Source: a virus
Length of the DNA stretch: 64,000 bases
Reading direction: 5' to 3' (one strand)
IMG/VR virus record: IMGVR_UViG_3300035663_000004
Coordinates: 23,524-87,523 of that record
Part shown: positions 5,698 to 64,000 of the stretch, piece after piece
How the letters are laid out: each line of letters opens with the position of its first letter
Numbering within the stretch: position 1 is the stretch's first letter
Made by a program: the position numbers and the translations under genes
Notes under the pieces: generated by a model
Told to the model about the DNA's origin: nothing
Databases searched by the model: none
The model's input: only the letters and a program-made list of their open reading frames with translations

Positions 5698-5700
5698 GTT

Positions 5701-5745
5701 TATAAAAATTTGCCCGCTCTCGGTTATGAGGGCGCGCGGGTGAAA
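5701..5745 (-). repeat. intergenic hairpin repeat, copy 1
   Basis: tataaaaatttgcccgctctcggttatgagggcgcgcgggtgaaa. Confidence 0.9.
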
Positions 5746-5752
5746 AGATAAA

Positions 5753-6196
5753 CTAAATTTCTCCGTTGTCGGCAAAGCTGTAAAAATCGCCGTCGGGGGC
5801 TAAAATAATATGATCTAACAGAATAATATCTAACAATTTCCCCGCGTCGGCTATCGCCTTAGTTAGTTTCCGGTCTGCATCGCTGGGCCGGAGTTCTCCG
5901 CTCGGGTGGTTGTGCGCAATAATTAGCGCGCTGGCAAGACCTTTGCAGGCGGCCCCAAAAAGTATTTTTAAATCTACAACTGTGCCGGCTATACCTCCGG
6001 CGGATAATTCTACAAGGCCTAAAACTTGGTTCCTTCTGTTTAGCAGGAGCGCTTTAAACTCCTCCTGCATTTCGATTTTTTTCGGGTTCCAGCTTTCGCG
6101 TAAAATTTCGTGCGCTGAATGCGACCCGGTAATTTTCGGCCGGTCTTTGGCTTTTACTTTGGCGCTATAAAAAAGGCTTATTTCCGCAACTTCCAT
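5753..6196 (-). CDS. radC: RadC-like JAB domain protein
   Basis: QEEFKALLLN, GGIAGTVVD, HNHPSG..PS.AD, LLDHII motifs. Confidence 0.92.
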   Translation of the reverse strand: MEVAEISLFYSAKVKAKDRPKITGSHSAHEILRESWNPKKIEMQEEFKALLLNRRNQVLGLVELSAGGIAGTVVDLKILFGAACKGLASALIIAHNHPSGELRPSDADRKLTKAIADAGKLLDIILLDHIILAPDGDFYSFADNGEI

Positions 6197-6200
6197 TTTT

Positions 6201-6245
6201 TATAAAAATTTGCCCGCTCTCGGTTATGAGGGCGGGCGGGTGAAA
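6201..6245 (-). repeat. intergenic hairpin repeat, copy 2
   Basis: tataaaaatttgcccgctctcggttatgagggcgggcgggtgaaa. Confidence 0.9.
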
Positions 6246-6248
6246 TAA

Positions 6249-6446
6249 TTATTTTTCTGCTGGTTTAAAAAGCGCGTGCGCTGCAAATTTGTTACCGATA
6301 AAGTCTTCTATATTAAAAAAGGCAATTTTTCCGGATTTGTTGCGCTTATCGTATTGTTTTACCTTCCATCCTTTGCGGGTTCTCTGTAAAAGTTCTACTT
6401 TTATGTCCGCGTAAAAAACGTGCTGCCAAACTTGCCCTACTTCCAT
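6249..6446 (-). CDS. hypothetical early protein
   Basis: 65-aa ORF bracketed by repeat copies 2 and 3. Confidence 0.65.
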   Translation of the reverse strand: MEVGQVWQHVFYADIKVELLQRTRKGWKVKQYDKRNKSGKIAFFNIEDFIGNKFAAHALFKPAEK

Positions 6447-6450
6447 GTTT

Positions 6451-6493
6451 TAAAATTTTGCCCGCTCTCGGTTATGAGGGCGGGCGGGTGAAA
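6451..6493 (-). repeat. intergenic hairpin repeat, copy 3
   Basis: taaaattttgcccgctctcggttatgagggcgggcgggtgaaa. Confidence 0.9.
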
Positions 6494-6496
6494 AAA

Positions 6497-6811
6497 TTAT
6501 TGTTGTTCTGGCTTCGGTTTGTCTGCTTGCGCGTGTTCGGGGTATCGCCTCAAAAACCCCAACCAAAAAGCCGGATAAACTTCTGCGAATTCGGGCGGGT
6601 TTAGTATTGCGGCGCGCTCAGAAAATATATATTCTTTTTGTGCTGTGCTGTGTTCTCCGGTTGCCAAATCGAAAACTTGGTAAAAGCCGGGGCGCTCTAT
6701 TGCGACTACCGCCAAAATATAGTATTGAAATCTTGCTACCGCTGTTTGGCCGGGTTCGCAATATACTTCTAAATTGTCGGCTATGATGGCAAAAAACGGG
6801 GGCTTTTTCAC
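6497..6811 (-). CDS. hypothetical early protein
   Basis: 104-aa ORF overlapping the stop of the upstream gene. Confidence 0.6.
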   Translation of the reverse strand: MKKPPFFAIIADNLEVYCEPGQTAVARFQYYILAVVAIERPGFYQVFDLATGEHSTAQKEYIFSERAAILNPPEFAEVYPAFWLGFLRRYPEHAQADKPKPEQQ

Positions 6812-14598: not shown

Positions 14599-15846
14599 AT
14601 GAAAAAGTTATCTTTATTCATATTATTCTTAGGCTTTTTCTTCCGGTTGTTTAGTCAAGGGACTGTTTTGACAACGGAGGGCGGGAAGCCTGTTATGTTA
14701 AACCTCGACGAAATGCGCACGGTGCGCCCTGTTACGTCGGGGTCTTTGATTTTATACGGATCGGCATTGCGCGCTATTTACGTTTCTGAAACGCCTGCGC
14801 AAATTGCAGGATCGGGGTGCGGTCAAATAGCGCTTGTAAATACGACCGACGTTGGCAGGAATACGATTGTTGGCATTGGCGTTCGCCATATTGACGCGAT
14901 TCGGAAAACATCCGACGGCAAAGCGAGTATTGCAATGAATGCGACCAATATTCCGGCTATGAAAAGCGTGGAGGATTTTGAAGCGATTGTCTTGCGGATT
15001 GCGGTGTGTTCTACCGGCCCTGGAGGCAACGGGTCTTCTGCGGGCGGAGATCGGGACAGTATTGAAGCGATGGTTTATGTTCCGACTACCGGGCGGCTTT
15101 CACTTATAAATGAATCCGGGGATAGCATTAGCGTAGTTATAAACAATCAAACGCTGTCTGTAACAGGAGATAGTTTAAGTATTAGTTTTGGCAATAAAGT
15201 AAAACTGCCGTCAAAAAGCCTTTTGGATTTGGCATCTGAATTGCCATATTATGTTAGCGATTCCGCGGCGCTGGCTGCTGGTCTTGCTCCAGGCGCGCCC
15301 TATTTGTTGGAGTGCAATAATGACTACAATTTACCTTCCGGGCTTTTCAAGGTTGTAAAAATTTGTGGGTATGACTGTTTTATTGTTTTACGTTTTTATA
15401 CAAACGATGAGGAGGCTGCGTCTTCCGGGGTTCCTGTTGGCAGGGAATATGTTTTGGATGATGACAACGCTTTGGGGGTTCTTTACGGCTTCATTAAAGT
15501 TCTTACAAATGATACGCTAAGCACGGGCGGATTGATTTGCAATGACACGCTGCCTGTTTATGCGTCTGACGCTTTGGCTATATCCGGCGGCCTGGCTGTT
15601 GGAGATCAATATGAAACTTCTGACGAAAATACCTATGGCGCTCCTGCTGGAATTGGTCGTATGGTTTCGTCTTCAAATACTTTGTCCGGCACAACTCAGG
15701 TTTGCTGTGACGAAAATGACAATTTGCCTTTTTTCAGTAACGATTCGGCTGCTATTTCCGCCGGATTGTTGGCCGGAGAAAAGTATTATCTTTTAAAATC
15801 GAATACATACGGATGGCCGTATGGAACAAAAAAGACTGTTCAATGA
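14599..15846 (+). CDS. secreted Cys-containing protein with four ~45-55-aa LPxY..D..A...GL..G..Y repeats
   Basis: MKKLSLFILFLGFFFRLFS|Q; repeats LPYYVSDSAALAAGLAPGAPY, LRFYTNDEEAASSGVPVGREY, LPVYASDALAISGGLAVGDQY, LPFFSNDSAAISAGLLAGEKY. Confidence 0.8.
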   Translation: MKKLSLFILFLGFFFRLFSQGTVLTTEGGKPVMLNLDEMRTVRPVTSGSLILYGSALRAIYVSETPAQIAGSGCGQIALVNTTDVGRNTIVGIGVRHIDAIRKTSDGKASIAMNATNIPAMKSVEDFEAIVLRIAVCSTGPGGNGSSAGGDRDSIEAMVYVPTTGRLSLINESGDSISVVINNQTLSVTGDSLSISFGNKVKLPSKSLLDLASELPYYVSDSAALAAGLAPGAPYLLECNNDYNLPSGLFKVVKICGYDCFIVLRFYTNDEEAASSGVPVGREYVLDDDNALGVLYGFIKVLTNDTLSTGGLICNDTLPVYASDALAISGGLAVGDQYETSDENTYGAPAGIGRMVSSSNTLSGTTQVCCDENDNLPFFSNDSAAISAGLLAGEKYYLLKSNTYGWPYGTKKTVQ

Positions 15847-18800
15847 ATCAAAAGTTTTTCCTTTCCGCCTTGTTTGTTTTTTCCTGCGGCATTGCGGGCG
15901 CGCAGGGTATCGTAAAGGGTTCCGGCATCATTTACAGCGATTCGATTCCTACGCATAGTGTAGATACGCTAAAAGAAGCGGAAATTGCTTTGGATGTCCG
16001 CACCGGGAATTACTATCAATGGAGCCGCGATTCGGTCAAGTGGGTGTTCTCCGGATTTAGGGTTGAGATCAAGCCCGGCGCCTGTTCTGCCCCAACGTAC
16101 ATTCCGGGGCGCAATCAGTCTTATTTCGTTTCCGACACTTGCGGAACATTTTATTTTTACAACGACACGCTTTGGAGGCAGGTTAAGGGGACGATTGCAG
16201 ACGGAGATAAAGGAGATATAACGGTATCCGGAAACGGACTAAACTGGAATATTGACGCCGGAACGATTGGCGCTACCGAACTTGCGTCCACGTCTGTTGC
16301 TCCGGGAACGTACTCAAATGCTACGGTTACCGTTGACGCCGACGGTCGTATAACAAATGCCGTAAACGGGCCTACCGGCGCGCGCGGCATATATGATGGA
16401 TCGGGAACTACCGGAGATTCTACGGTTGTTGCAAGTATCAAAAAGGAAATTCAGTTTAGGTCTGATTCTACGGATGCTTCATTTTTGGTGGACTTTACGC
16501 CGAATGATCTGTATGGAACCAACGCGGCTGTTCGCCCGGACTCTTTGAACTTCCTGTTTTTTAATTTAACGGGTTCATCGCGTCTTGTTATTAAGTCGGA
16601 CGGCATTTCCGCTATTACAAATACGGCAAACCCGTCTTTGCGGCTTACCGGGAACCCTGCGATATACAGCGCGGACTACTCTCCGTTTACGGATCGTGAA
16701 TTGCCGGACTACGCGGCGGTAAAAAAAATCGTTGTAGATTCTGTACAGGTTATAACTGTAACAAACGACACGGCGTACTTGAGTCGGTCTGGAGGAATTA
16801 TTCCATTGAAAAAATACGCTCAGGTTATTGATACGTTTTCAAGGCTTAATGATACGCTTTTTATATCTTTGAGCAATGACAACGCCCCTGCTGTTAGTGC
16901 CATTATTGACGGTAGCTCAACAAATGAAATTCAGGACTTATCGTTATCCGGTCAAACGCTTTCTTTGAGCAATGACCCAACAACGGTGACGCTTCCGGTT
17001 ATTGGAGTATCCGGCGGAACAGGAATTACAACAAGTTCGTCGGGCGGCACGGTAACGGTGACAAACGCCGCGCCGGATCAAACCGTCTCAATTAGCGGAT
17101 CGGGTATTACAACCGTTACGGGAACTTATCCGGTCTTTACCGTCACCAGCACGGAAAACGACGGATCAACTTCAAATGAAGGTAGCCTTACAGTAGGAGC
17201 CGGAATAGCAACTACAAGCGTAATATCCTCAAATACAAGCGGAAGCACAAACGTCACCATTGAAGCCGGGTCTAATATAACGTTAAGTGAATCAGGAAAT
17301 ACAATTACGATTGCATCTACGGCTGCCGGGGTAACGGATGGAGATAAAGACGATATTACGGTTTCCGGCTCCGGCGCAAACTGGAATATTCGAAATGACT
17401 CGGTAACAAGCCCTAAAATATTGGACGGAACTATTGCGCTGGCAGACATGGGCGCTAACAGCGTGGACTCAACAAAGGTGGGCGACAAAACGCTTAGTCT
17501 TAGTGATCTCAACGGGGCATGGGGGGTACAAAATGGATTCGTGTTGAAATGGAATGGGTCTAACTGGCGACCCGGGGCGGATAATACCGGGGCGGACGGG
17601 AACGGCATTTATGGCGGCGACGGAGATATACCAACCGGCACCGACGCGACATTGCCGCTCAATAGTTTTTTTAGGTTTGAATGGCCAAGCGGAAATACAG
17701 CCTTTATAATGGATGATTTTGGCGACACGGTTTATTTGGCCGACCCTTCGCTGGCTTCTTCTGTTTTGGTTTCCGCTTCAAAGGTCGGCCTTCGCTCAAC
17801 AGGGAATATCGAACTTTGGGGTGGCACGGGCGGCGCTAAACTTCGGATGTTAGAACCGACGGGATCGGGAACTAACTATACTGAAATTCAGGTCGGCGCA
17901 CAGTCAACGGACATAACTTATACTTTGCCAACAACAACCGGATCGAATGGTCAATACCTGCAATTTACGACTGGCGGCCAGTTGCAATGGTCAACGGTGG
18001 CGGCCGGGGTAACGGATGGAGATAAAGACGATATTACGGTTTCCGGCTCCGGCGCAAACTGGAACATACGCAACGATTCAGTAACAAGCCCAAAGATATT
18101 AGACGGGACGATTGCGCTGGTGGACATGGGCGCAAATAGTGTTGACTCAACAAAAATAGGCGACAAAACTGTAAGCCTTAGCGATCTTAATGGTGCGTGG
18201 GGCGCAAATGCAGGATCGGTGCTAAAATGGGACGGGAACAACTGGAGGCCGGGAACAGACAATAATACCGACGCGCAAACGCTATCTATTAATAGTACAA
18301 CGGTAGGCAGTAGCGAGCGGTTTGCTGTTTCGATTTCCAGCGGGAATACGGTTAATTTTGACGTACCACAAGGGACGGTTACCTCGGTTGGTATCACTCA
18401 ACCCGCTGCCGGAATAACAGTAACTAATAGCCCTGTAACAACAAGCGGAAATATAAGCCTTGCGCTTGCAAATGACCTTGGCGCGGTTGAAGGGCTTACC
18501 ACGAACGGTATTGCGGTGCGGACTGGTGACAACACATGGACAACAAGAAGTATAGCGGGCGCGGCGGACCCTTCATCCACCGCATTACCTACTATAAACG
18601 ATTTTAATGGCGTCAATGGTAACCCCACAATATCAATAAGCACATCAACAAGCACCACAAAACTAACGGCGCTTGTTGCTACAACCGCTAACATTACATT
18701 AAGCGGGACGCAAACGATTGATGGTGTTGCGCTAAGTGCAGACAACAGGGTGCTGGTTAAAAACCAAAATACAGCGAGCCAAAATGGCTTATATGTAGTT

Positions 18801-21800
18801 AGGACAACAGCGTGGGTCAGAGCAACAGACCTTGATGCAAATACCGAATTAAACAATGGAGTTTTGGTTTACATTAGTCGCGGGACAGCAAATGGAGGCA
18901 AATACTTTAGGCTCGCAACGTCAACAGAACCGCCATTAACCATAACCACAAGCGCTTTAAGCTTTAGCGAAACCCTTGGCGCTGGCGTGACGGACGGCGA
19001 CAAGGATGATATAACGGTATCAAATTCAGGCGCAAACTGGAATATTAGAAACGATAGTGTTACGACTCCAAAAATCCTAAACGGAACAATCCTGTTTGAA
19101 GACATTGGCCAAAACAGCGCATCGCCCGGACAGGTTATCAAGTGGAACGGGACAGCTTGGGCGGCGGCGGCCGACAATACAGGCGGATCGGGTTCGACTG
19201 ATTTAAGCTGGACGGGCGCTTCTTCGCCTTATACGCTTAATAGTTCTTCTGGCACGGATGTGGATTTCGCGCAAGGCGGCGGCATAACGCTTTCAACAAG
19301 CGGGGCAACCTTGACTATTGCGGCTACGGATCAGTCCACGACAAACGAATTACAGACACTTTCTACGGCTACAAATACGGTAACGCTAAGCAATAGCGGC
19401 GGCAGTTTTACGATTGCAGGCGGCGGCATAAACGCTGCTTCAACATCGGGTTCTACTATTACAATAACCGGAACAGAGGTGGATGGCTCAACGACAAATG
19501 AGATACAAGACCTTTCGCTTTCAGGCCAAACGCTTTCTTTGAGCAGCGACGCTACAACGGTGACGCTTCCGGTTATCGCGGTATCGGCTGGAACTGGAAT
19601 ATCCACAAGTTCTTCCGGCGGCACGGTGACGGTGACTAATTCGGCGCCCGACCAAACAGTAGGAATAACCGGAACCGGAATAACAGTAGTTTCTAATTAC
19701 CCAAACTTTACTCTTACGGCGGCCGATCAGTCAGCCTCAAACGAAGTGCTAACAATTTCCGATGGCACAAACACCGAGGCTCTGGGCGGTCAAACATTAA
19801 CAGTTGCAGGCGGTGGTATCAATACGGCATCCTATAATGCTACAACCAATACGCTTACGATTAGCGGCACCGAGAATGACGGATCAACCTCAAACGAAGG
19901 TATTTTAGGTGTAGGCGCTGGATCGGGAACAACCGCTACAATTACAACAAACACAACAACCGGGAATGCTGTAACTATCGCGGGCGGTGGTATTGTGGCT
20001 ATTACAAAAACAACAGGTACGAACGGCGGCACTATTACTATTACCGGCACCGAGGCGGATGGCTCAACTACGAATGAATTGCAAACGCTTTCCACGGCAA
20101 CAAATACCGTTACACTCAGTAACAGCGGCGGAAGTTTTACAATCTCTGGCGCTGGCATTAATACGGCATCTACTTCCGGCTCAACTATAACTATAACAGG
20201 AACCGAGAACGACGGCTCAACTACAAATGAACTTCAGACGTTAAGTACGGCGACAAACACCGTTACGCTTTCTAATTCAGGCGGCAGCTTCACAATAGCA
20301 GGTGGTGGTATCAATACAGTATCCACAAGCGGGTCAACTATTACTGTTACTGGAACTGAAAACGACGGCTCAACCACAAACGAACTGCAAACAATCGCCA
20401 ACACATCCGACGCAACCAGTCATACGGTGACGCTGTCTAATTCGGGCGGGTCGGTGCAGTTGATTCAAGGCGCTGGTATTGATCTTACAACAGGCGGGAA
20501 CAGCGGCGCGGGAACGGTTACGATTGCGGCCACAAATAGCGGCACGGTTACATCGGTAGGCATCACCGCACCGGCCGCCGGCATAACCGTAAGCAATAGC
20601 CCTATCACGTCGAGCGGGAATATTACACTTGCGCTTGCGGATGATTTAGCGGCGGTAGAGGGATTAACGAGTATAGGTGTTGCTGTTAGAACCAATAATG
20701 TGCCGCCAACATGGACAACAAGGTCTTTAACGGTAGCTAATCCTATTTCTATACAAAACGCTACGGGCGCAAGCGATAATCCGTTTATATATTTAAACAA
20801 TGGAGATTACGGCGATATAAGCATTGCAAACTCTAATTTGCCCCTCGGGCTTCGTGGCGATGTTTGGACGATTGATGCCAACGTAGTAGATTCAACAAAC
20901 GTCGGCAACAATACGTTGAGCGTTGACGATATTAACGGCGGGTGGGGCGTTCAAACCGGGTCTGTATTGAAATGGAACGGGACAAACTGGCGTCCGGGAA
21001 CAGACGAAACAGGCGGCGGCGGCGGCGGCGTGACCGACGGCGACAAAGGCGACATAACGGTATCCGCTTCCGGCGCTACGTGGACGATTGATAACACCGT
21101 TGTGAATTACGCAAAAATCCAAAACATATCCAACACAAACCGCATTTTAGGCCGGGCAACGGCCGGGGCTGGATCAGTCGAAGAGATAACAGTTGGTGGC
21201 GATTTGACCCAAAGCGGGTCAAATTTTACGGTTGCTAACGACGCCATCACTTTTGCGAAAATGCAGAACAGCGCAGCCGCCGGGCTTTCGGTAGTTGGGC
21301 GAAGCGCAAACAGCGCCGGGGATTTCGCCGAAATAAACGCGGGCACAGACGGCTTTGTGTTGCGCAGGTCGGGTACTACTTTGGGCTTTGGGACGGTGGC
21401 GACGGCGGGGATTGCGGACGCGGCGGTGACTTACGCAAAAATCCAAAACGTAGCAGGTAACAGCGTGTTGGCTCGTACTGCCAGCGGATCGGGCACCCTT
21501 AGCGAGGTGGCGCTTTCGGCTTCTAATTTGTTAGGTCGCGGTAGTACGGGTAATGTGAGCGCGATTACGTTGGGTAGTAATTTGTCTATGTCGGGCACAG
21601 CCCTTAACACGACCGGGCATCCAACAATCACGGGAACGCCAACGACAAACGCGATACCGAAATGGACATCAAGTTCGGCGCTGGGTTCGACGATTGTCCA
21701 AGAGTCAATTTCTGGCGCGGACACGATCATTCAGATCGTTGGCCGGGACGCTTTGCGGTTGCCGCTGGGGACTACGGCGGAGCGGCCGGGAACGCCTACT

Positions 21801-22700
21801 ATTGGTATGACGCGCTATAATACTACTAATGGGGCGTTTGAGTATTATGACGCGGACGCGTGGGAAACGCCGCTGATTTCGGCTACGGGTACGGGACTTG
21901 GTACGGCGGGAAATGTGTTTTTTGCGGATGCGAATGGGCGGGCAAGCGGATCAACAAACCTTTTTTGGGACGCGACTAATAGCAGGCTGGGTGTTGGGAC
22001 AAGTTCGCCGCAAAGTCAGTTTCACTTTGTAACGAACGTTTCAGGCGACCCATCAAACTTCGTTGTAGAGCGATACACAGCAAACGCAAACATTATCCAG
22101 CGCCGCGCGAACGGAACTATTGCGTCGCCAACAGCCTGCCTTAATGGAGATGTATTGGGCGCAAACGCTTTTCGTGGCCATAACGGGACGGCGTTCGCAT
22201 CCCTTTCATCTGTAGTCATGCTTGCTGTTGCTACGGAAAACTGGACAACCTCTGCAAATGGCGCGAGGTTTACAATTAACACGATTCCTAACGGGGCAAC
22301 TTCAGGAAGTGCACGATTTACAATTAACCACAACGGCAACGTAAATATTGGTAGCGGCACAAGTCCTGAAAACAGGTTGCAAATTGAAGGCACCCTCGGT
22401 CGCAACGCGCCCGTATCAACTGACGCCACAGCATACGTCATGACAAATGACGTATCTACCACGTGGCTAATTTGTGACGAAACAGCAACAACAACGATCA
22501 CCCTTCCGGCGGCATCAAGTTGGAGCGGCCGCGAACTCACAATCAAAAATATCACCGCTTTTGCGGTGAACTCAAACGCGTCTAACGTTTTGCCTATTGG
22601 CAGCAATACGGCGGGAACGGCGATACTTTCAGCAACGGCTGGATCGTGGGCGCTGCTGGTATCAAATGGCACGAACTGGGTTATAATGCAACGCGGATAA
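15843..22700 (+). CDS. giant Thr/Ser/Gly-rich fibre/adhesin-like protein with Sec signal peptide (probably an A/B hybrid across the junction)
   Basis: MNQKFFLSALFVFSCGIAGA|Q; repeated DGDK.DITVS and TNE(I/L)Q modules; tail-fibre-like ATTANITLSGTQTIDGV..RVLVKNQ..SQNGLY domain; C-terminal TLPAAS..GRELTIKN..LVSNGTNW. Confidence 0.85.
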   Translation: MNQKFFLSALFVFSCGIAGAQGIVKGSGIIYSDSIPTHSVDTLKEAEIALDVRTGNYYQWSRDSVKWVFSGFRVEIKPGACSAPTYIPGRNQSYFVSDTCGTFYFYNDTLWRQVKGTIADGDKGDITVSGNGLNWNIDAGTIGATELASTSVAPGTYSNATVTVDADGRITNAVNGPTGARGIYDGSGTTGDSTVVASIKKEIQFRSDSTDASFLVDFTPNDLYGTNAAVRPDSLNFLFFNLTGSSRLVIKSDGISAITNTANPSLRLTGNPAIYSADYSPFTDRELPDYAAVKKIVVDSVQVITVTNDTAYLSRSGGIIPLKKYAQVIDTFSRLNDTLFISLSNDNAPAVSAIIDGSSTNEIQDLSLSGQTLSLSNDPTTVTLPVIGVSGGTGITTSSSGGTVTVTNAAPDQTVSISGSGITTVTGTYPVFTVTSTENDGSTSNEGSLTVGAGIATTSVISSNTSGSTNVTIEAGSNITLSESGNTITIASTAAGVTDGDKDDITVSGSGANWNIRNDSVTSPKILDGTIALADMGANSVDSTKVGDKTLSLSDLNGAWGVQNGFVLKWNGSNWRPGADNTGADGNGIYGGDGDIPTGTDATLPLNSFFRFEWPSGNTAFIMDDFGDTVYLADPSLASSVLVSASKVGLRSTGNIELWGGTGGAKLRMLEPTGSGTNYTEIQVGAQSTDITYTLPTTTGSNGQYLQFTTGGQLQWSTVAAGVTDGDKDDITVSGSGANWNIRNDSVTSPKILDGTIALVDMGANSVDSTKIGDKTVSLSDLNGAWGANAGSVLKWDGNNWRPGTDNNTDAQTLSINSTTVGSSERFAVSISSGNTVNFDVPQGTVTSVGITQPAAGITVTNSPVTTSGNISLALANDLGAVEGLTTNGIAVRTGDNTWTTRSIAGAADPSSTALPTINDFNGVNGNPTISISTSTSTTKLTALVATTANITLSGTQTIDGVALSADNRVLVKNQNTASQNGLYVVRTTAWVRATDLDANTELNNGVLVYISRGTANGGKYFRLATSTEPPLTITTSALSFSETLGAGVTDGDKDDITVSNSGANWNIRNDSVTTPKILNGTILFEDIGQNSASPGQVIKWNGTAWAAAADNTGGSGSTDLSWTGASSPYTLNSSSGTDVDFAQGGGITLSTSGATLTIAATDQSTTNELQTLSTATNTVTLSNSGGSFTIAGGGINAASTSGSTITITGTEVDGSTTNEIQDLSLSGQTLSLSSDATTVTLPVIAVSAGTGISTSSSGGTVTVTNSAPDQTVGITGTGITVVSNYPNFTLTAADQSASNEVLTISDGTNTEALGGQTLTVAGGGINTASYNATTNTLTISGTENDGSTSNEGILGVGAGSGTTATITTNTTTGNAVTIAGGGIVAITKTTGTNGGTITITGTEADGSTTNELQTLSTATNTVTLSNSGGSFTISGAGINTASTSGSTITITGTENDGSTTNELQTLSTATNTVTLSNSGGSFTIAGGGINTVSTSGSTITVTGTENDGSTTNELQTIANTSDATSHTVTLSNSGGSVQLIQGAGIDLTTGGNSGAGTVTIAATNSGTVTSVGITAPAAGITVSNSPITSSGNITLALADDLAAVEGLTSIGVAVRTNNVPPTWTTRSLTVANPISIQNATGASDNPFIYLNNGDYGDISIANSNLPLGLRGDVWTIDANVVDSTNVGNNTLSVDDINGGWGVQTGSVLKWNGTNWRPGTDETGGGGGGVTDGDKGDITVSASGATWTIDNTVVNYAKIQNISNTNRILGRATAGAGSVEEITVGGDLTQSGSNFTVANDAITFAKMQNSAAAGLSVVGRSANSAGDFAEINAGTDGFVLRRSGTTLGFGTVATAGIADAAVTYAKIQNVAGNSVLARTASGSGTLSEVALSASNLLGRGSTGNVSAITLGSNLSMSGTALNTTGHPTITGTPTTNAIPKWTSSSALGSTIVQESISGADTIIQIVGRDALRLPLGTTAERPGTPTIGMTRYNTTNGAFEYYDADAWETPLISATGTGLGTAGNVFFADANGRASGSTNLFWDATNSRLGVGTSSPQSQFHFVTNVSGDPSNFVVERYTANANIIQRRANGTIASPTACLNGDVLGANAFRGHNGTAFASLSSVVMLAVATENWTTSANGARFTINTIPNGATSGSARFTINHNGNVNIGSGTSPENRLQIEGTLGRNAPVSTDATAYVMTNDVSTTWLICDETATTTITLPAASSWSGRELTIKNITAFAVNSNASNVLPIGSNTAGTAILSATAGSWALLVSNGTNWVIMQRG
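21021..21537 (+). repeat. direct repeat, left copy
   Basis: 517 bp matching 63484-64000 with 11 mismatches; identical from 21411 onward. Confidence 0.97.
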
Positions 22701-22715
22701 AACAAACATTAAAAT

Positions 22716-23348
22716 ATGAAACACATCCTTTTCCTTCTCCTTTTCCCGGCTGCCTTGTTGGCGCAAGATCAACCGGACACAACCGCCGTCACCTATGAAA
22801 ACCGGGGCGGCATCTTTTACACCGTCACGAAAACAACGTTTCAATCCGGGCGGATCGTGACCGAAGAAACGCCGCTTGGCGCGGACACAGCAGGCGTGGT
22901 AAACGCCATTATCGGGCCGGTATTCACAGCCACAACCGACGCCGCAAACAAGGCTATACAGGTGGCACGGCTTAACCGGGTGCGGCAACAGGTGGTGGCG
23001 GCCAACGCGGCGCTCAACGGGCTTGTTGGACAGGATTATTTTAGCGTGGTACAGAACGCCGTTGGCCAGGAATTTTTGCCGGATTCATTACAAAGTATCC
23101 CGGCTACTATGCGCGTTGACGGCGGCTCTCCCATCACCGCATCAATCCGGCGAAACGCCGCCGGGCGCTTGGTATTTAGGCAGGGAACGCAGAACTTTAC
23201 GCTGGATATCGTTAGCCGTAATTGGATACGCTTGCGGCGCTATCAGGGTACGGAAACGCTGGCGACAGACGCCGTGATTGTTGATCTGTTCAAAGAAACT
23301 GAAGGGCGCTGGATTTCTCTTGATCTTAAATATAATCTGCGAAAATAA
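22716..23348 (+). CDS. secreted hypothetical protein (Sec signal peptide)
   Basis: MKHILFLLLFPAALLA|Q. Confidence 0.75.
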   Translation: MKHILFLLLFPAALLAQDQPDTTAVTYENRGGIFYTVTKTTFQSGRIVTEETPLGADTAGVVNAIIGPVFTATTDAANKAIQVARLNRVRQQVVAANAALNGLVGQDYFSVVQNAVGQEFLPDSLQSIPATMRVDGGSPITASIRRNAAGRLVFRQGTQNFTLDIVSRNWIRLRRYQGTETLATDAVIVDLFKETEGRWISLDLKYNLRK

Positions 23349-24466
23349 TGGCGAACAAAAAAATTTCCGAACTTGAACCCGGCCAACAGGTAGTTGCGGA
23401 CACGCAGTTACCCGGTTCACTGGGCGCGCAGACGTTCAAGTACACGGCTGACCAACTGGCTGCCTACGTTCAATCTAAGGACACGGCGGGCGATATTGAC
23501 GGGCCGCTGACCGGTGCCGAAGTAGTCGGCATTCGCGGGCGCTCGGTATCTGCGACGGAGCCAACGAACGGGCAGATATTGCAATGGAACGGTACGGCAT
23601 GGATCCCGGTCGCTGCGCCTGCCGCTGCGTTCACGCCGGTGGTATACGAATATAGCAACCCCGTTACCAACGAACTGCTTACAATCCCGACCGGCGCAAC
23701 GCTCATAGATATTATTTGCATCGGCGCTGGCGCTGGCGGCGGTTCCGGGCGCCGGGGCGCTGCGGGGACGGTTCGCTGTGGCGGAGGCGGTGGCGGTTCC
23801 GGTACTTTTTCTACCATCACGGTACGCGCGGGCGATATTGACGGGCCGCTAAAAGTTACGGTCGGCGCTGGAGGGAGCGGTGGTACAGCCCGTACAGTGG
23901 ACAGTACAGACGGCGCGAACGGTAGCCCTGGCACGTCTTCGCAGGTTACGTCGAACACGAACGCGATATTGTGTTTTGCGCTCCGAGGCGGAGCGGGAAT
24001 AGGGGGTACCACATCAAGTGGCCCTGGCGGTGCTGCTGGTACGTCTGGCGACTTTCAAGGCAGCGCCGGCAATTCGGCGTCAACAAGCGGCGGAGCGGGG
24101 CAGGACGCAGGCGCTGCTTCGTCGAGAGGCCCGTCGGGTGGCGGCGCTGGTGGCGGTATTACATCCGGCAACGCCGCATCGGACGGTAGCAGCGGGCAGT
24201 CGGTGGTTCACGGGCAAATCTTGGTCGTGAACCGGGGCACGGTCGCAAACCCAAACGCGTCCGGGGGGTATTCGCCGTTACAGGGGCAAACAACTGGCGG
24301 CGGCGGCGGCGGCGGTGGAGCGTCCAGCCTAACCGGCGCTGGAGGACTTGGCGGTAACGGCGTACGCGGCGGCGGTGGCGGTGGTGGTGGTGCGAGTGTG
24401 AACGGAAACAACTCCGGCGCGGGCGGCAACGGCGGCAATGGTTACGTGCGTATAATCTTTTTGTAA
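23348..24466 (+). CDS. glycine-rich virion fibre/structural protein
   Basis: MANKKISEL N-terminus; GQILQWNGTAW; IGAGAGGGSG...GGNGGNGYVRI Gly-rich domain. Confidence 0.8.
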   Translation: MANKKISELEPGQQVVADTQLPGSLGAQTFKYTADQLAAYVQSKDTAGDIDGPLTGAEVVGIRGRSVSATEPTNGQILQWNGTAWIPVAAPAAAFTPVVYEYSNPVTNELLTIPTGATLIDIICIGAGAGGGSGRRGAAGTVRCGGGGGGSGTFSTITVRAGDIDGPLKVTVGAGGSGGTARTVDSTDGANGSPGTSSQVTSNTNAILCFALRGGAGIGGTTSSGPGGAAGTSGDFQGSAGNSASTSGGAGQDAGAASSRGPSGGGAGGGITSGNAASDGSSGQSVVHGQILVVNRGTVANPNASGGYSPLQGQTTGGGGGGGGASSLTGAGGLGGNGVRGGGGGGGGASVNGNNSGAGGNGGNGYVRIIFL

Positions 24467-36478: not shown

Positions 36479-37351
36479 ATGGCAAATCTGACTGAATCAC
36501 CGGTGTACGAAGCCGGTATATATCAATTAGAAACGACCGACCCGGTATTGGGCGGTTCTTCCGGCATTGCTAACCTTCAGGGCAAGCAACTCGCCAACCG
36601 GACGGCGTGGCTGAAGCAAAAAATTGACAACTTAGGCTTCGGTACAACAGGCGTACCTGTGTACGCTGGCAATCTAAACAGCCTGCTGGATACCGGCTGG
36701 TGGTACGCCACGACGGCAACAACCAACAAGCCGACGGGCGCAAGCGAGGGGTTCGTCCAGGTGGTCGAATACGTCACGCTTGGGTACTCTTATCAAGTGT
36801 ATCACTCGATCACCGTTGACCGAATCTGGACGCGCCGGATTACGGACGGGCCAACGTTCGGGGCGTGGTCGGAAATCGGGCGCGCTGCCGACCTGGCTAC
36901 GCTGAACGATCAACTGATCGGGAGCGTGGCGGCGTTCGCAATGAATACGCCGCCGACGGGCTGGTTCAAGTGCAATGGCGCTGCGGTATCACGCTCGCTG
37001 TACGCCGGGCTGTTCGCGAAGATCGGCACGACGTTCGGCGTCGGAAACGGAAGCACGACGTTCAATCTGCCAGACTTGCGCGGTGAGTTCGTACGGGGCT
37101 GGGACGACGGGCGCGGACTTGACGTTGGGCGCGTGTTTGGTTCGGCACAGGGCTACGCGACCGAAGCGCACACGCACTTTCTTCGTATGCAGACGCTCGG
37201 AGGAATTAACAACAACGGGAGCAGTCCGTATGCAACGACCGTAGCGAATAGCAACGATAGCACAACCACGATGACGCAGGCGCAGGTCGGCGGCGAAGGG
37301 GAAACGAGACCGCGAAACATTGCCCTGCTATACGCAATCAAATGGCAATAA
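36479..37351 (+). CDS. tail fibre protein with tail-collar domain
   Basis: QLANRT.WLK; PTGW.KCNG.AVSR..Y..LF..IGT.FG.G.GSTTFNLPDLRGEF.RGWD; ETRPRNIAL. Confidence 0.93.
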   Translation: MANLTESPVYEAGIYQLETTDPVLGGSSGIANLQGKQLANRTAWLKQKIDNLGFGTTGVPVYAGNLNSLLDTGWWYATTATTNKPTGASEGFVQVVEYVTLGYSYQVYHSITVDRIWTRRITDGPTFGAWSEIGRAADLATLNDQLIGSVAAFAMNTPPTGWFKCNGAAVSRSLYAGLFAKIGTTFGVGNGSTTFNLPDLRGEFVRGWDDGRGLDVGRVFGSAQGYATEAHTHFLRMQTLGGINNNGSSPYATTVANSNDSTTTMTQAQVGGEGETRPRNIALLYAIKWQ

Positions 37352-60235: not shown

Positions 60236-60607
60236 ATGGCACAAAACCATATTACCGACGGCAGCCGGATTGAGGTGACCCTCGGAAACGAAACAACCCT
60301 TGGAGCTGGCAAGGGCCGCTTGGTCGGTTCAATGTTCGGCGTTATTCTGAGCCTGACCCGCAACGGGCAGACCGTGTTCGCCAACCAGGCATCCGCATCC
60401 GGCGACGTGGCAGTGATTGCTCTCTCCGGCGTTTTCACGCTGCCGAAAACAAACCCGCTCGTTATCAACCTGGGCGCAAAACTGTATTGGGACGACACCA
60501 ACAAAGTCGTGACCACGACGGTAGGTTCCAACGTTTTCGTGGGCTACGCCTGGACGGCTGCCGCTTCGACGGACGCGACGGTGCAGGTAAAGCTGCAAAC
60601 GGCCTAA
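60236..60607 (+). CDS. capsid cement/decoration protein (DUF2190)
   Basis: GVF.LPK; GAKLYWD; VG.A..AA....V.VKL. Confidence 0.85.
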   Translation: MAQNHITDGSRIEVTLGNETTLGAGKGRLVGSMFGVILSLTRNGQTVFANQASASGDVAVIALSGVFTLPKTNPLVINLGAKLYWDDTNKVVTTTVGSNVFVGYAWTAAASTDATVQVKLQTA

Positions 60608-62923: not shown

Positions 62924-63139
62924 ATGCCTAACGTTAAACCGCTAAAGGTAGGCAGTACGGGTTATGTAACGGAGTTTCAAACGAACGACACAATAGACCC
63001 CGCACTGGTGCTAAAGGCGCTGCCGTCATACGTTGACGATGCGGCTGCAATAACAGGCGGGTTGTCCGTTGGCGACTTCTATGTAGTTGCGGCGGGCAAC
63101 GACGCAATACCGGCCGGAATTGTAAAAAAAATACTATGA
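62924..63139 (+). CDS. small protein with one LPxY..D..A...GL..G..Y module
   Basis: LPSYVDDAAAITGGLSVGDFY...PAGIVKKI, homologous to the repeats of 14599..15846. Confidence 0.75.
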   Translation: MPNVKPLKVGSTGYVTEFQTNDTIDPALVLKALPSYVDDAAAITGGLSVGDFYVVAAGNDAIPAGIVKKIL

Positions 63140-64000
63140 TAAACAAATATTTATTTTCTTTATTTATTTTCATTTTTCCGGCTGCCGCATTTTCGCAGAT
63201 CGTGAAGACGGCCGCTATACCTTACACAACCGGGACGCCAACGCACACGCCGTCGGCGTCCGGTTCTGCCTGGGCGATTGATAATTCAACCCTTGACTTG
63301 TGGGTGTATTATGGCAGCGCGTGGAACCTTGCCGGGGAGCGCATACAAACCATATCCGGGTGCGCCGCACCTGCCTACACGCCGGGCACGGGGCAATCGC
63401 TGTTTGTTGTGAACGGCTGTGATTCGCTGTATTATTACCGTTCGGGCGCGTGGGTGCGGATTAACGCTGGCGGCGGTGGCGGTGGCGGCGGCGTGACCGA
63501 CGGCGACAAGGGCGACATAACGGTATCCGCTTCCGGCGCTACGTGGACGATCGATAACACCGTTGTGAATTACGCAAAAATCCAAAACGTATCCAACACA
63601 AACCGCATTTTAGGCCGGGCAACGGCCGGGGCTGGATCGGTAGAAGAGATAACAGTAGGTGGCGATTTGACCCAAAGCGGGTCAAATTTTACGGTTGCTA
63701 ACGACGCCATAACTTTCGCGAAAATGCAGAACAGTGCAGCCGCCGGGCTTTCGGTAGTTGGGCGAAGCGCAAACAGCGCCGGGGATTTCGCCGAAATAAA
63801 CGCGGGTACAGACGGCTTTGTGTTGCGCAGGTCGGGTACTACTTTGGGCTTTGGGACGGTGGCGACGGCGGGTATTGCGGACGCGGCGGTGACTTACGCA
63901 AAAATCCAAAACGTAGCAGGTAACAGCGTGTTGGCTCGTACTGCCAGCGGATCGGGCACCCTTAGCGAGGTGGCGCTTTCGGCTTCTAATTTGTTAGGTC
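63136..64000 (+). CDS. phage B signal-peptide fibre/adhesin-like protein, 5' part (runs off the window; not in ORF track)
   Basis: MINKYLFSLFIFIFPAAAFS|QIVK...GCAAPAYTPGTGQSLFVVNGCDSLYYY...G8-VTDGDKGDITVS; ATGA overlap with 62924..63139. Confidence 0.9.
   Translation, partial: MINKYLFSLFIFIFPAAAFSQIVKTAAIPYTTGTPTHTPSASGSAWAIDNSTLDLWVYYGSAWNLAGERIQTISGCAAPAYTPGTGQSLFVVNGCDSLYYYRSGAWVRINAGGGGGGGGVTDGDKGDITVSASGATWTIDNTVVNYAKIQNVSNTNRILGRATAGAGSVEEITVGGDLTQSGSNFTVANDAITFAKMQNSAAAGLSVVGRSANSAGDFAEINAGTDGFVLRRSGTTLGFGTVATAGIADAAVTYAKIQNVAGNSVLARTASGSGTLSEVALSASNLLG
63484..64000 (+). repeat. direct repeat, right copy (truncated by window end)
   Basis: Matches 21021-21537 at offset 42,463. Confidence 0.97.

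Follow-up and report, generated by a model that had tools for sequence, protein, structure and literature searches.

Anchoring of a fibre through its N-terminus is a known principle among phages. Domains that bind a fibre or tailspike to the particle include the head-binding domain of P22 gp9 and the N-terminus of T7 gp17, which sits on gp11 and gp12, and T4 gp10-like docking domains are found in the branched tailspike sets of CBA120 and G7C. The long tail fibre of T4 is joined end to end (gp34-gp35-gp36-gp37) from cytoplasmic proteins that have dedicated chaperones. Immunoglobulin (Ig)-like domains are reportedly added to the C-termini of phage structural proteins, as described by Fraser and colleagues in 2006, and cellulosomes use the small, portable and terminal cohesin and dockerin modules, with tandem receptors on a scaffold. 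The present work concerns a pair of neighbouring genes found twice in a 64-kb stretch of viral DNA (the window), which is the final part of the 87.5-kb IMG/VR record IMGVR_UViG_3300035663_000004, a record classed as linear. The first gene of each pair encodes a protein ending in one or more copies of a module of about 40 residues, and the second a fibre with a signal peptide followed by a conserved N-domain. The pairs belong to two uncultured lake phages of Bacteroidota, here called phage A and phage B.

It is proposed that the module is a socket on the virion side, that the N-domain is the matching plug of the fibre, and that the two are inherited together. We infer the binding itself, and the probability of this reading is put at roughly 55%.

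Linkage between the module and the fibre N-domain

All N-domain loci that were read (about 22, with seven types of module carrier) have a module that ends close to the fibre start, from 4 nucleotides (nt) inside the fibre gene to 10 nt ahead of it. For 13 loci the spacing was -4 (the overlap ATGA), -1, or +2 to +10 nt, and the ATGA overlaps given for the window in a preliminary description of this DNA were both found, at 63136 in phage B and at 15843 in phage A. Scans seeded with the N-domain led to loci L004-L010, L016, L034, L035, L042 and L044, all with a module directly before the fibre start. Scans seeded with the module, together with a genome search, led to L018-L023, L028 and L030, each with a leader-bearing N-domain fibre directly downstream, and most full-length modules reached by the module-seeded scans have such a fibre in this position. 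The L030 fibre carries a divergent class of N-domain starting IxGGGG, which is also present in P0143, P0121 and P0139. The co-occurrence and adjacency check suggested in the preliminary description was thus strongly positive in both directions within the loci reached.

The linkage persists through complete replacement of the carrier. Seven unrelated carriers are found: the 71-amino acid (aa) protein of phage B, the leader-bearing protein with four modules (phage A and L023), a terminator-like protein encoded after the tape measure (the type of genome G001), a terminator-like protein in neck position (L042 and L044), a protein of 263-273 aa (L018, L019, L021 and L034), a collagen-like protein of 92 aa (L028) and a 396-aa protein (L030). 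The identity matrices of the modules and of the adjacent N-domains are strongly correlated (r 0.89, Mantel p ~2e-4). The breakpoints of exchange are thus outside the pair, upstream of the module on one side and downstream of the N-domain on the other, and do not separate the two. P0143 and P0146, both about 1230 aa long, are either natural fusions of the pair or share an artefact of gene calling, as a leader-bearing module protein here reads through into a second, internal leader and a fibre of the IxGGxGV class.

Four modules had been reported for phage A and one for phage B, and these five align with eight invariant columns, the invariant residues being Y, D, A, G, G, Y, N and G. When the complete 87.5-kb record was scanned in six frames with a profile of these modules and many relatives, each copy was recovered with E 1e-16 to 1e-19, and no further module was found there. 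When 1.84 billion cluster representatives were searched, 256 matched at E <= 1e-3, with lengths from 52 to 3007 aa. The carrier statistics are based on the 146 credible carriers among the best 150 of these 256 matches; P0042 and P0124 were rejected as true carriers since their partial matches fall in a different repeat. In 114 of the 146 carriers the last module lies at most five residues from the C-terminus, and in 138 at most 20. Most often there is one copy (78 carriers), but two (34), three (24), four (9) and five (1) are also found. The N-terminal parts are mutually unrelated, and comprise terminator-like proteins, collagen-like stalks, Cys-rich exported proteins and free forms of 52-92 aa. 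One carrier family, of about 590 aa, resembles a PHROG tail fibre, its first 260 aa being similar to the beginning of that protein.

The AlphaFold2 (AF2) model of the module comprises about 40 residues in the order strand-helix-strand-strand (one short helix and three short strands), with a predicted local distance difference test score (pLDDT) of about 90. VIA and Foldseek fold searches gave no PDB match (Z < 2), and in BFVD the model matched uncharacterised phage proteins only. In the protein atlas only unnamed viral clusters were matched, the nearest named clusters being PTL_trimer (0.87) and Mtd_N (0.83), both below the counting level. When it comes to sequence, the module matches nothing in Pfam, PHROG, NCBIfam or PDB, and Pfam gave zero matches with ten long carriers. 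A LysM reading of the module was rejected, as P0001 and P0002 match no Pfam family at E <= 1 and neither LysM nor any other wall-binding module. A C-terminal sorting domain of the type IX secretion system (T9SS) was likewise rejected: T9SS cargo always has an N-terminal signal peptide, which many carriers lack (the 71-aa protein of phage B, the terminator-like proteins), the module is about 40 aa long vs about 70-100 aa for the sorting domain, and the carriers have no match to PF18962/TIGR04183 in the whole Pfam and NCBIfam libraries. Cellulophaga phage phi46:3 contains no module, and tblastn with the N-domain and with the phage A carrier against 50,697 GenBank phages gave zero matches. Single-protein scans of IMG/VR gave nothing with P0111, P0060 and P0009, and one 6-kb contig with P0068.

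A short variant of the module, without the last hairpin, is found in L015 and L025 (a 72-aa open reading frame), L024 and P0145. It has no N-domain partner, occurs once on a 124-kb contig, and in P0145 precedes a fibre tip with an HxH motif. This variant may have a different role.

The N-domain family comprises 24 clusters in a word-based search, with proteins of 176-1934 aa. The N-domains of the two window fibres had been described as alignable; BLASTP gives 33% identity over 125 aa with E 8e-18, and in both fibres the motif DGDKGDITVS follows directly after the N-domain, also as described. The distal parts of the same two fibres are 97.5-100% identical. Throughout the 24 clusters the shafts diverge immediately after the N-domain, and the N-domain is thus the constant anchor end of these fibres. 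It has no sequence match in Pfam, PHROG or PDB. Its structural model gives Foldseek E > 0.1 and VIA Z <= 3.5, where the tailspike N-terminal rows at Z 3.0-3.5 are within noise.

All 22 N-domain proteins with an intact start carry an n-h-c leader followed by Gln, as judged by eye. The leaders of the window end AFS/Q, AGA/Q and LFS/Q, and both fibres as well as the phage A carrier have Gln at +1. Substrates of Sec and signal peptidase I in Bacteroidota follow a Q-rule, in which Gln occupies +1 and the residues at -3 and -1 are small (Bochtler et al., 2018; PMC5837995). The fibres are probably exported, because they carry such a Bacteroidota Sec signal with Gln at +1. Two Cys residues had been regarded as characteristic of the N-domain. 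They are invariant in the closer relatives, but both are absent together from the more distant N-domains of L018, L021, L023, P0009, P0081 and P0111, a pattern that fits an optional disulfide rather than a defining feature.

Among species genomes the sole match to the N-domain is a Lewinellaceae metagenome-assembled genome (MAG), G004. This MAG has one module/N-domain cassette of the G001 type and a different one with the 92-aa collagen-like carrier, on separate contigs (C43 and C183). Any module at all was present in only 3 of 401 genomes from its order, and such phages are thus seldom found in bacterial assemblies.

The location of the carriers in the particle is illustrated by G001, a complete siphovirus genome of 35.9 kb with direct terminal repeats. 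Its genes are found in the order portal, protease, major head, adaptor, head closure, major tail and tape measure, and the cassette region then follows with an 819-aa protein ending in a module, a 196-aa terminator-like protein also ending in a module, a leader-bearing fibre of 1709 aa and a leader-bearing protein of 217 aa. G001 contains exactly two modules and one N-domain, all consecutive, and the signal-peptide fibre is its only long fibre. The terminator-like carriers match PHROG 347, 'tail terminator'. The carriers that can be identified sit at the neck (terminator-like) or at the tail tip (after the tape measure), and do not support the capsid-side location suggested for the phage B module in the preliminary description. 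Nor is a cytoplasmic module the general case, as the carrier of phage A has a signal peptide and leader-like N-termini were found by a crude test in about 45 of the 146 carriers.

The 217-aa protein encoded after the fibre of the siphovirus G001 is 65% identical (E 4e-92) to the 210-aa protein of the window, which is assigned to the myovirus B and encoded directly after the fibre. The cassette thus has three members. Neither Pfam nor NCBIfam has a family for the 210-aa protein. Leader-bearing proteins of this type, encoded behind the fibre gene in the window and in L026 (1965-2618, minus strand), may be periplasmic helpers of the fibre.

Two phages joined in one record

The preliminary description took the window to contain two phages. 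Two phages are indeed present, but as separate genomes joined by the assembler, not as neighbours on one DNA. The G+C content is 44-50% as far as about position 21000 and 51-59% beyond it. Just after this point lies a copy of the distal fibre part with which the contig ends (Table 1); the final 128 nt of the two copies are identical, and with them the contig ends. The copy in phage A is the point where the assembly paths of the two phages merge. This was seen when Logan contigs from four lake-water runs were mapped onto window positions 19500-24000. In two independent studies a contig specific for phage A leads into the shared 3' part of the fibre gene with depths of 21.3 and 8.2, and a second path into the same part ends in the N-domain sequence of phage B. 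The shared part has depths of 77.9 and 26-32, and the contig specific for phage B that leaves it has depths of 60.7 and 18.7. The depth of the shared part is thus the sum of the two specific depths, as expected for two separate genomes with a near-identical distal fibre. That one phage is inserted in the fibre gene of another was ruled out, as the depths sum as two genomes in both of the independent runs.

Phage A diverges into its own sequence past about 23260-23334, including a variant of the 210-aa gene that is about 92% identical, and the assembler changes genome somewhere within the shared fibre part from 21012 onward. A fibre resembling that of phage B, with an N-domain 93% identical, is present on a separate contig of 42,452 bp, a length that agrees with the spacing of the repeats.

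Table 1. Features of the module/fibre cassettes and their surroundings, in window coordinates.
Feature	Position	Strand	Remarks
Phage A module protein, 415 aa	14599..15846	+	Signal peptide 14599-14655; Cys-rich N-terminal part; four modules at 15235-15360, 15379-15510 (divergent), 15541-15669 and 15715-15843; TGA overlaps the fibre ATG
Phage A fibre, 2285 aa as assembled	15843..22700	+	Signal peptide 15843-15902 (AGA/Q); N-domain ~15903-16217, profile E 7e-48; long repeat shaft
210-aa protein	22716..23348	+	Own signal peptide (LLA/QD); directly 3' of the fibre gene
Shared distal fibre repeat	21012..21537	+	Copy of 63475-64000; 97.5% identity; spacing 42,463 nt
Phage B Gp37-family protein (PF09646), 285 aa	61002..61859	+	C-terminal extra region in place of the module; three genes upstream of the 71-aa module gene
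Phage B fibrous protein, 167 aa	62407..62910	+	First 15 residues resemble the N-terminus of the 71-aa protein
Phage B module protein, 71 aa	62924..63139	+	No signal peptide; module at residues 31-70 (63014-63133), one residue before the stop, profile E 6e-19; TGA (63137-63139) overlaps the fibre ATG
Phage B fibre, 5' part, cut by contig end	63136..64000	+	Signal peptide 63136-63195 (AFS/Q); N-domain 63196-63474, profile E 2e-66; poly-Gly linker and DUF5907-type repeats from 63475
Collagen-like cement-type protein, 180 aa	61861-62403		Gly-X-Y run, then cement-protein domain (PF09956)
Other cement-type gene	60236-60607		
Phage B P2-type tail fibre	36479-37351		Collar domain; behind baseplate genes J and I
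67-nt repeat, three copies	5700-6514		G+C-rich hairpin core; phage A minus-strand gene region

Phage B is a P2-like myovirus. Its head genes encode the terminase gpA, a lambda-type portal, a protease-capsid fusion, a cement protein and the Gp37-family protein, and its tail genes encode the sheath, the tube, the tape measure, U, D, W, J, I and a further tail fibre, which has a Collar domain. The small fibre cluster that includes the module/fibre pair follows the head genes and precedes the tail genes. Since phage B has a separate, conventional P2-type fibre, the leader-bearing fibre is an additional appendage, its gene having the head-completion genes on one side and the sheath gene on the other. 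The small module protein of this phage consists of a short N-terminal peptide and one module. Its N-terminus is not hydrophobic, which bears out the earlier statement that it has no signal peptide. Residues 5-17 are identical to the N-terminus of the neighbouring 167-aa protein at 8 of 13 positions (E 0.004 in a single comparison, a weak hint), and the peptide common to the two, as judged from sequence, may be a shared anchoring peptide. In a pairwise comparison, the Gp37-family protein and the terminator-like module carrier of G001 had no detectable similarity. The phage B fibre fragment matches PF19264 (DUF5907) with 45.5 bits vs a gathering cut-off of 27, over three stretches that belong to the shaft and not to the N-domain. 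The collagen-like protein of 180 aa is encoded by a second cement-type gene.

In all four-module carriers (phage A and the relatives P0009 and L023) the second module is divergent, beginning LRFY and ending LYGFIKV, and three canonical copies remain. It may be speculated that three canonical modules would suit a trimeric partner.

A proposed socket and plug, and its alternatives

In the proposed mechanism the socket would be the module at the extreme C-terminus of a protein that is built into the particle or bound to it. Such a carrier could be a neck protein of the tail-terminator-like kind, the product of the gene behind the tape measure or a stalk of collagen-like sequence; in phage B it would be an adaptor of 71 residues that has a short anchoring peptide. 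The plug would be the N-domain, acting as the conserved anchor of a fibre whose shaft and tip are freely exchanged behind it. The preliminary description had also suggested a docking pair, with the two-Cys domain as partner of the module. The overlap of stop and start codons would couple the synthesis of socket and fibre. After export the fibre would be trimmed in the periplasm, where some lineages would also form a disulfide, and it would meet the socket-bearing particles only at lysis. For phage A the four-module carrier would be exported together with the fibre. The module/fibre pair and the small exported protein would move between phages as a unit, so that a phage gaining a fibre would also gain the matching socket. 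This reading is supported by the linkage seen from both sides, the spacing at the junction, the seven unrelated carriers, the neck and tail-tip positions, the unbroken row of modules and N-domain in G001 and the correlated divergence, and further by the terminal position of the module (114 of 146 carriers) and by the anchor-like behaviour of an N-domain that is conserved in front of exchanged shafts.

Several points weigh against it. Linkage and correlated divergence would also be expected from plain co-inheritance of a cassette, and with a leaderless carrier the socket and the plug would be in different compartments until lysis. The N-domain and a module occur in one chain in P0009, P0081 and P0111, and the single-chain AF2 model of the natural fusion P0081 has a predicted template modelling score (pTM) of 0.47, so that the two are not confidently packed against each other. 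Modules precede a fibre part in P0072 and P0085. These one-chain proteins fit a generic domain equally well as a chain of joints. Modules without an adjoining N-domain gene are found in L017, L029, and, as the short variant, in L015/L025 and L024. In L017 the genes behind a terminator-like carrier are one of 101 aa and then that of the major tail protein, and the 6-kb contig ends inside a homologue of the 819-aa carrier; in L029 a 273-aa fibre-like carrier is followed by holin-like genes. Finally, the scans were seeded with relatives of the window sequences, and the genomic context was read for a minority of the 256 module clusters.

The presence of the module on many unrelated carriers, in one to five tandem copies, could also be explained if it were a small adhesion or decoration domain for glycans or the cell envelope, which merely travels with the fibre in a mobile cassette. 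On fibre-like carriers the module would then form the distal tip; among these, the P0059 family is similar to a PHROG tail fibre in the N-terminal part of the latter, and the L029 carrier lies before holin-like genes. One fibre, P0111, has the N-domain at its N-terminus and the module at its C-terminus. The many carriers that look exported point in the same direction, as does the Gp37-family protein of phage B, which has a different C-terminal extension where its relatives have a module. However, a domain of this kind leaves unexplained why a module lies directly upstream of every N-domain gene seen, on seven types of carrier, and why free proteins of 52-92 aa exist that consist of little beyond a module. 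Nor is the predicted fold an Ig-like sandwich, and no lectin or carbohydrate-binding family was matched, where a weak or missing match proves little. This explanation is considered unlikely, though it is the one to be taken most seriously after the socket.

Six carriers and L028 have the module at the extreme C-terminus directly behind collagen-like Gly-X-Y runs, as would be seen for a nucleus of oligomerisation or folding similar to the T4 fibritin foldon or the non-collagenous (NC) domains of collagens. The translational coupling to the fibre gene would also suit a module that helps the protein encoded next to assemble. Neither the two to five tandem copies per chain nor the terminator-like carriers fit a trimerisation nucleus well, and a cytoplasmic carrier could not chaperone the folding of a fibre after Sec export; a role of this kind thus appears improbable. 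The same low standing is given to the suggestion that the fibre and its partners form an exported complex of the host envelope outside the virion, for instance for receptor masking or superinfection exclusion. Signal peptides on the fibre, the 210-aa protein and the phage A carrier would be expected for such a complex, and phage B has a separate P2-type Collar-domain fibre behind J and I. In G001, however, the signal-peptide fibre is the only long fibre and is encoded in the tail module after the tape measure. Moreover, the leaderless carriers are neck and tail proteins, and the fibre shows the design with a conserved anchor and a variable tip that is usual for virion fibres.

If the socket and plug do bind, they offer a way to study how an exported fibre comes to sit on a particle that is assembled in the cytoplasm. 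They would be a marker for finding the receptor-binding fibres of uncultured Bacteroidota phages, together with the sites where these are attached. They would also explain how two unrelated, co-occurring lake phages share a distal fibre, each with its own joint. The module of 40 residues and the domain of 95 residues are small enough for direct expression and testing. It is conceivable, though on balance doubtful, that the picture is a general one: that the particles of tailed Bacteroidota phages are completed outside the cytoplasm, with Sec-exported fibres that mature in the periplasm (leader removed, Gln cyclised and, in some lineages, a disulfide formed) and are caught at lysis by a portable 40-residue socket on a neck protein, a tail-tip protein or an adaptor, and that the cassette of socket, plug and helper moves among siphovirus-, myovirus- and podovirus-like phages. 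Tandem sockets, for instance the four of phage A, would in that case permit branched sets of fibres.

Relation to known anchoring systems

In the literature searched, neither exported tail fibres nor the module were the subject of any paper found. New with respect to the libraries and the literature searched are a widespread, unannotated domain as putative socket, its hopping between carriers together with the fibre, and a host secretion signal on the fibre. The leaders are like those of the Q-rule substrates of Bacteroidota in their n-h-c organisation, the small residues of -3 and -1 and the Gln that follows at +1; here they are found on phage fibre proteins, for which cleavage and formation of pyroglutamate are predicted.

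The closest likeness is to the anchors of P22, T7 and CBA120, which also have a conserved N-terminal anchor, exchanged distal parts and a partner on neck or tail-tip proteins, and as in the branched tailspike sets, the tandem sockets of phage A could give branching. Unlike in these systems, the proposed socket is a 40-aa C-terminal tag that hops between carriers and the plug sits behind a Sec signal peptide, and no sequence or fold match to them was found. As in the T4 long tail fibre, neighbouring genes would encode proteins joined end to end, C-terminus to N-terminus, and proteins with both an N-domain and a module, such as P0009 and P0111, could form chains. No homology to the T4 proteins was found, and these differ also in being cytoplasmic and in having dedicated chaperones. 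The promiscuous C-terminal addition to tail, neck and fibre proteins resembles that of the Ig-like domains, while the predicted strand-helix-strand-strand fold is no beta sandwich and the module is tightly linked to one partner gene. The pairing of many carriers with one type of partner is analogous to that of cohesin and dockerin, although the proteins are unrelated, the biological setting is another one and the Pfam search gave no match.

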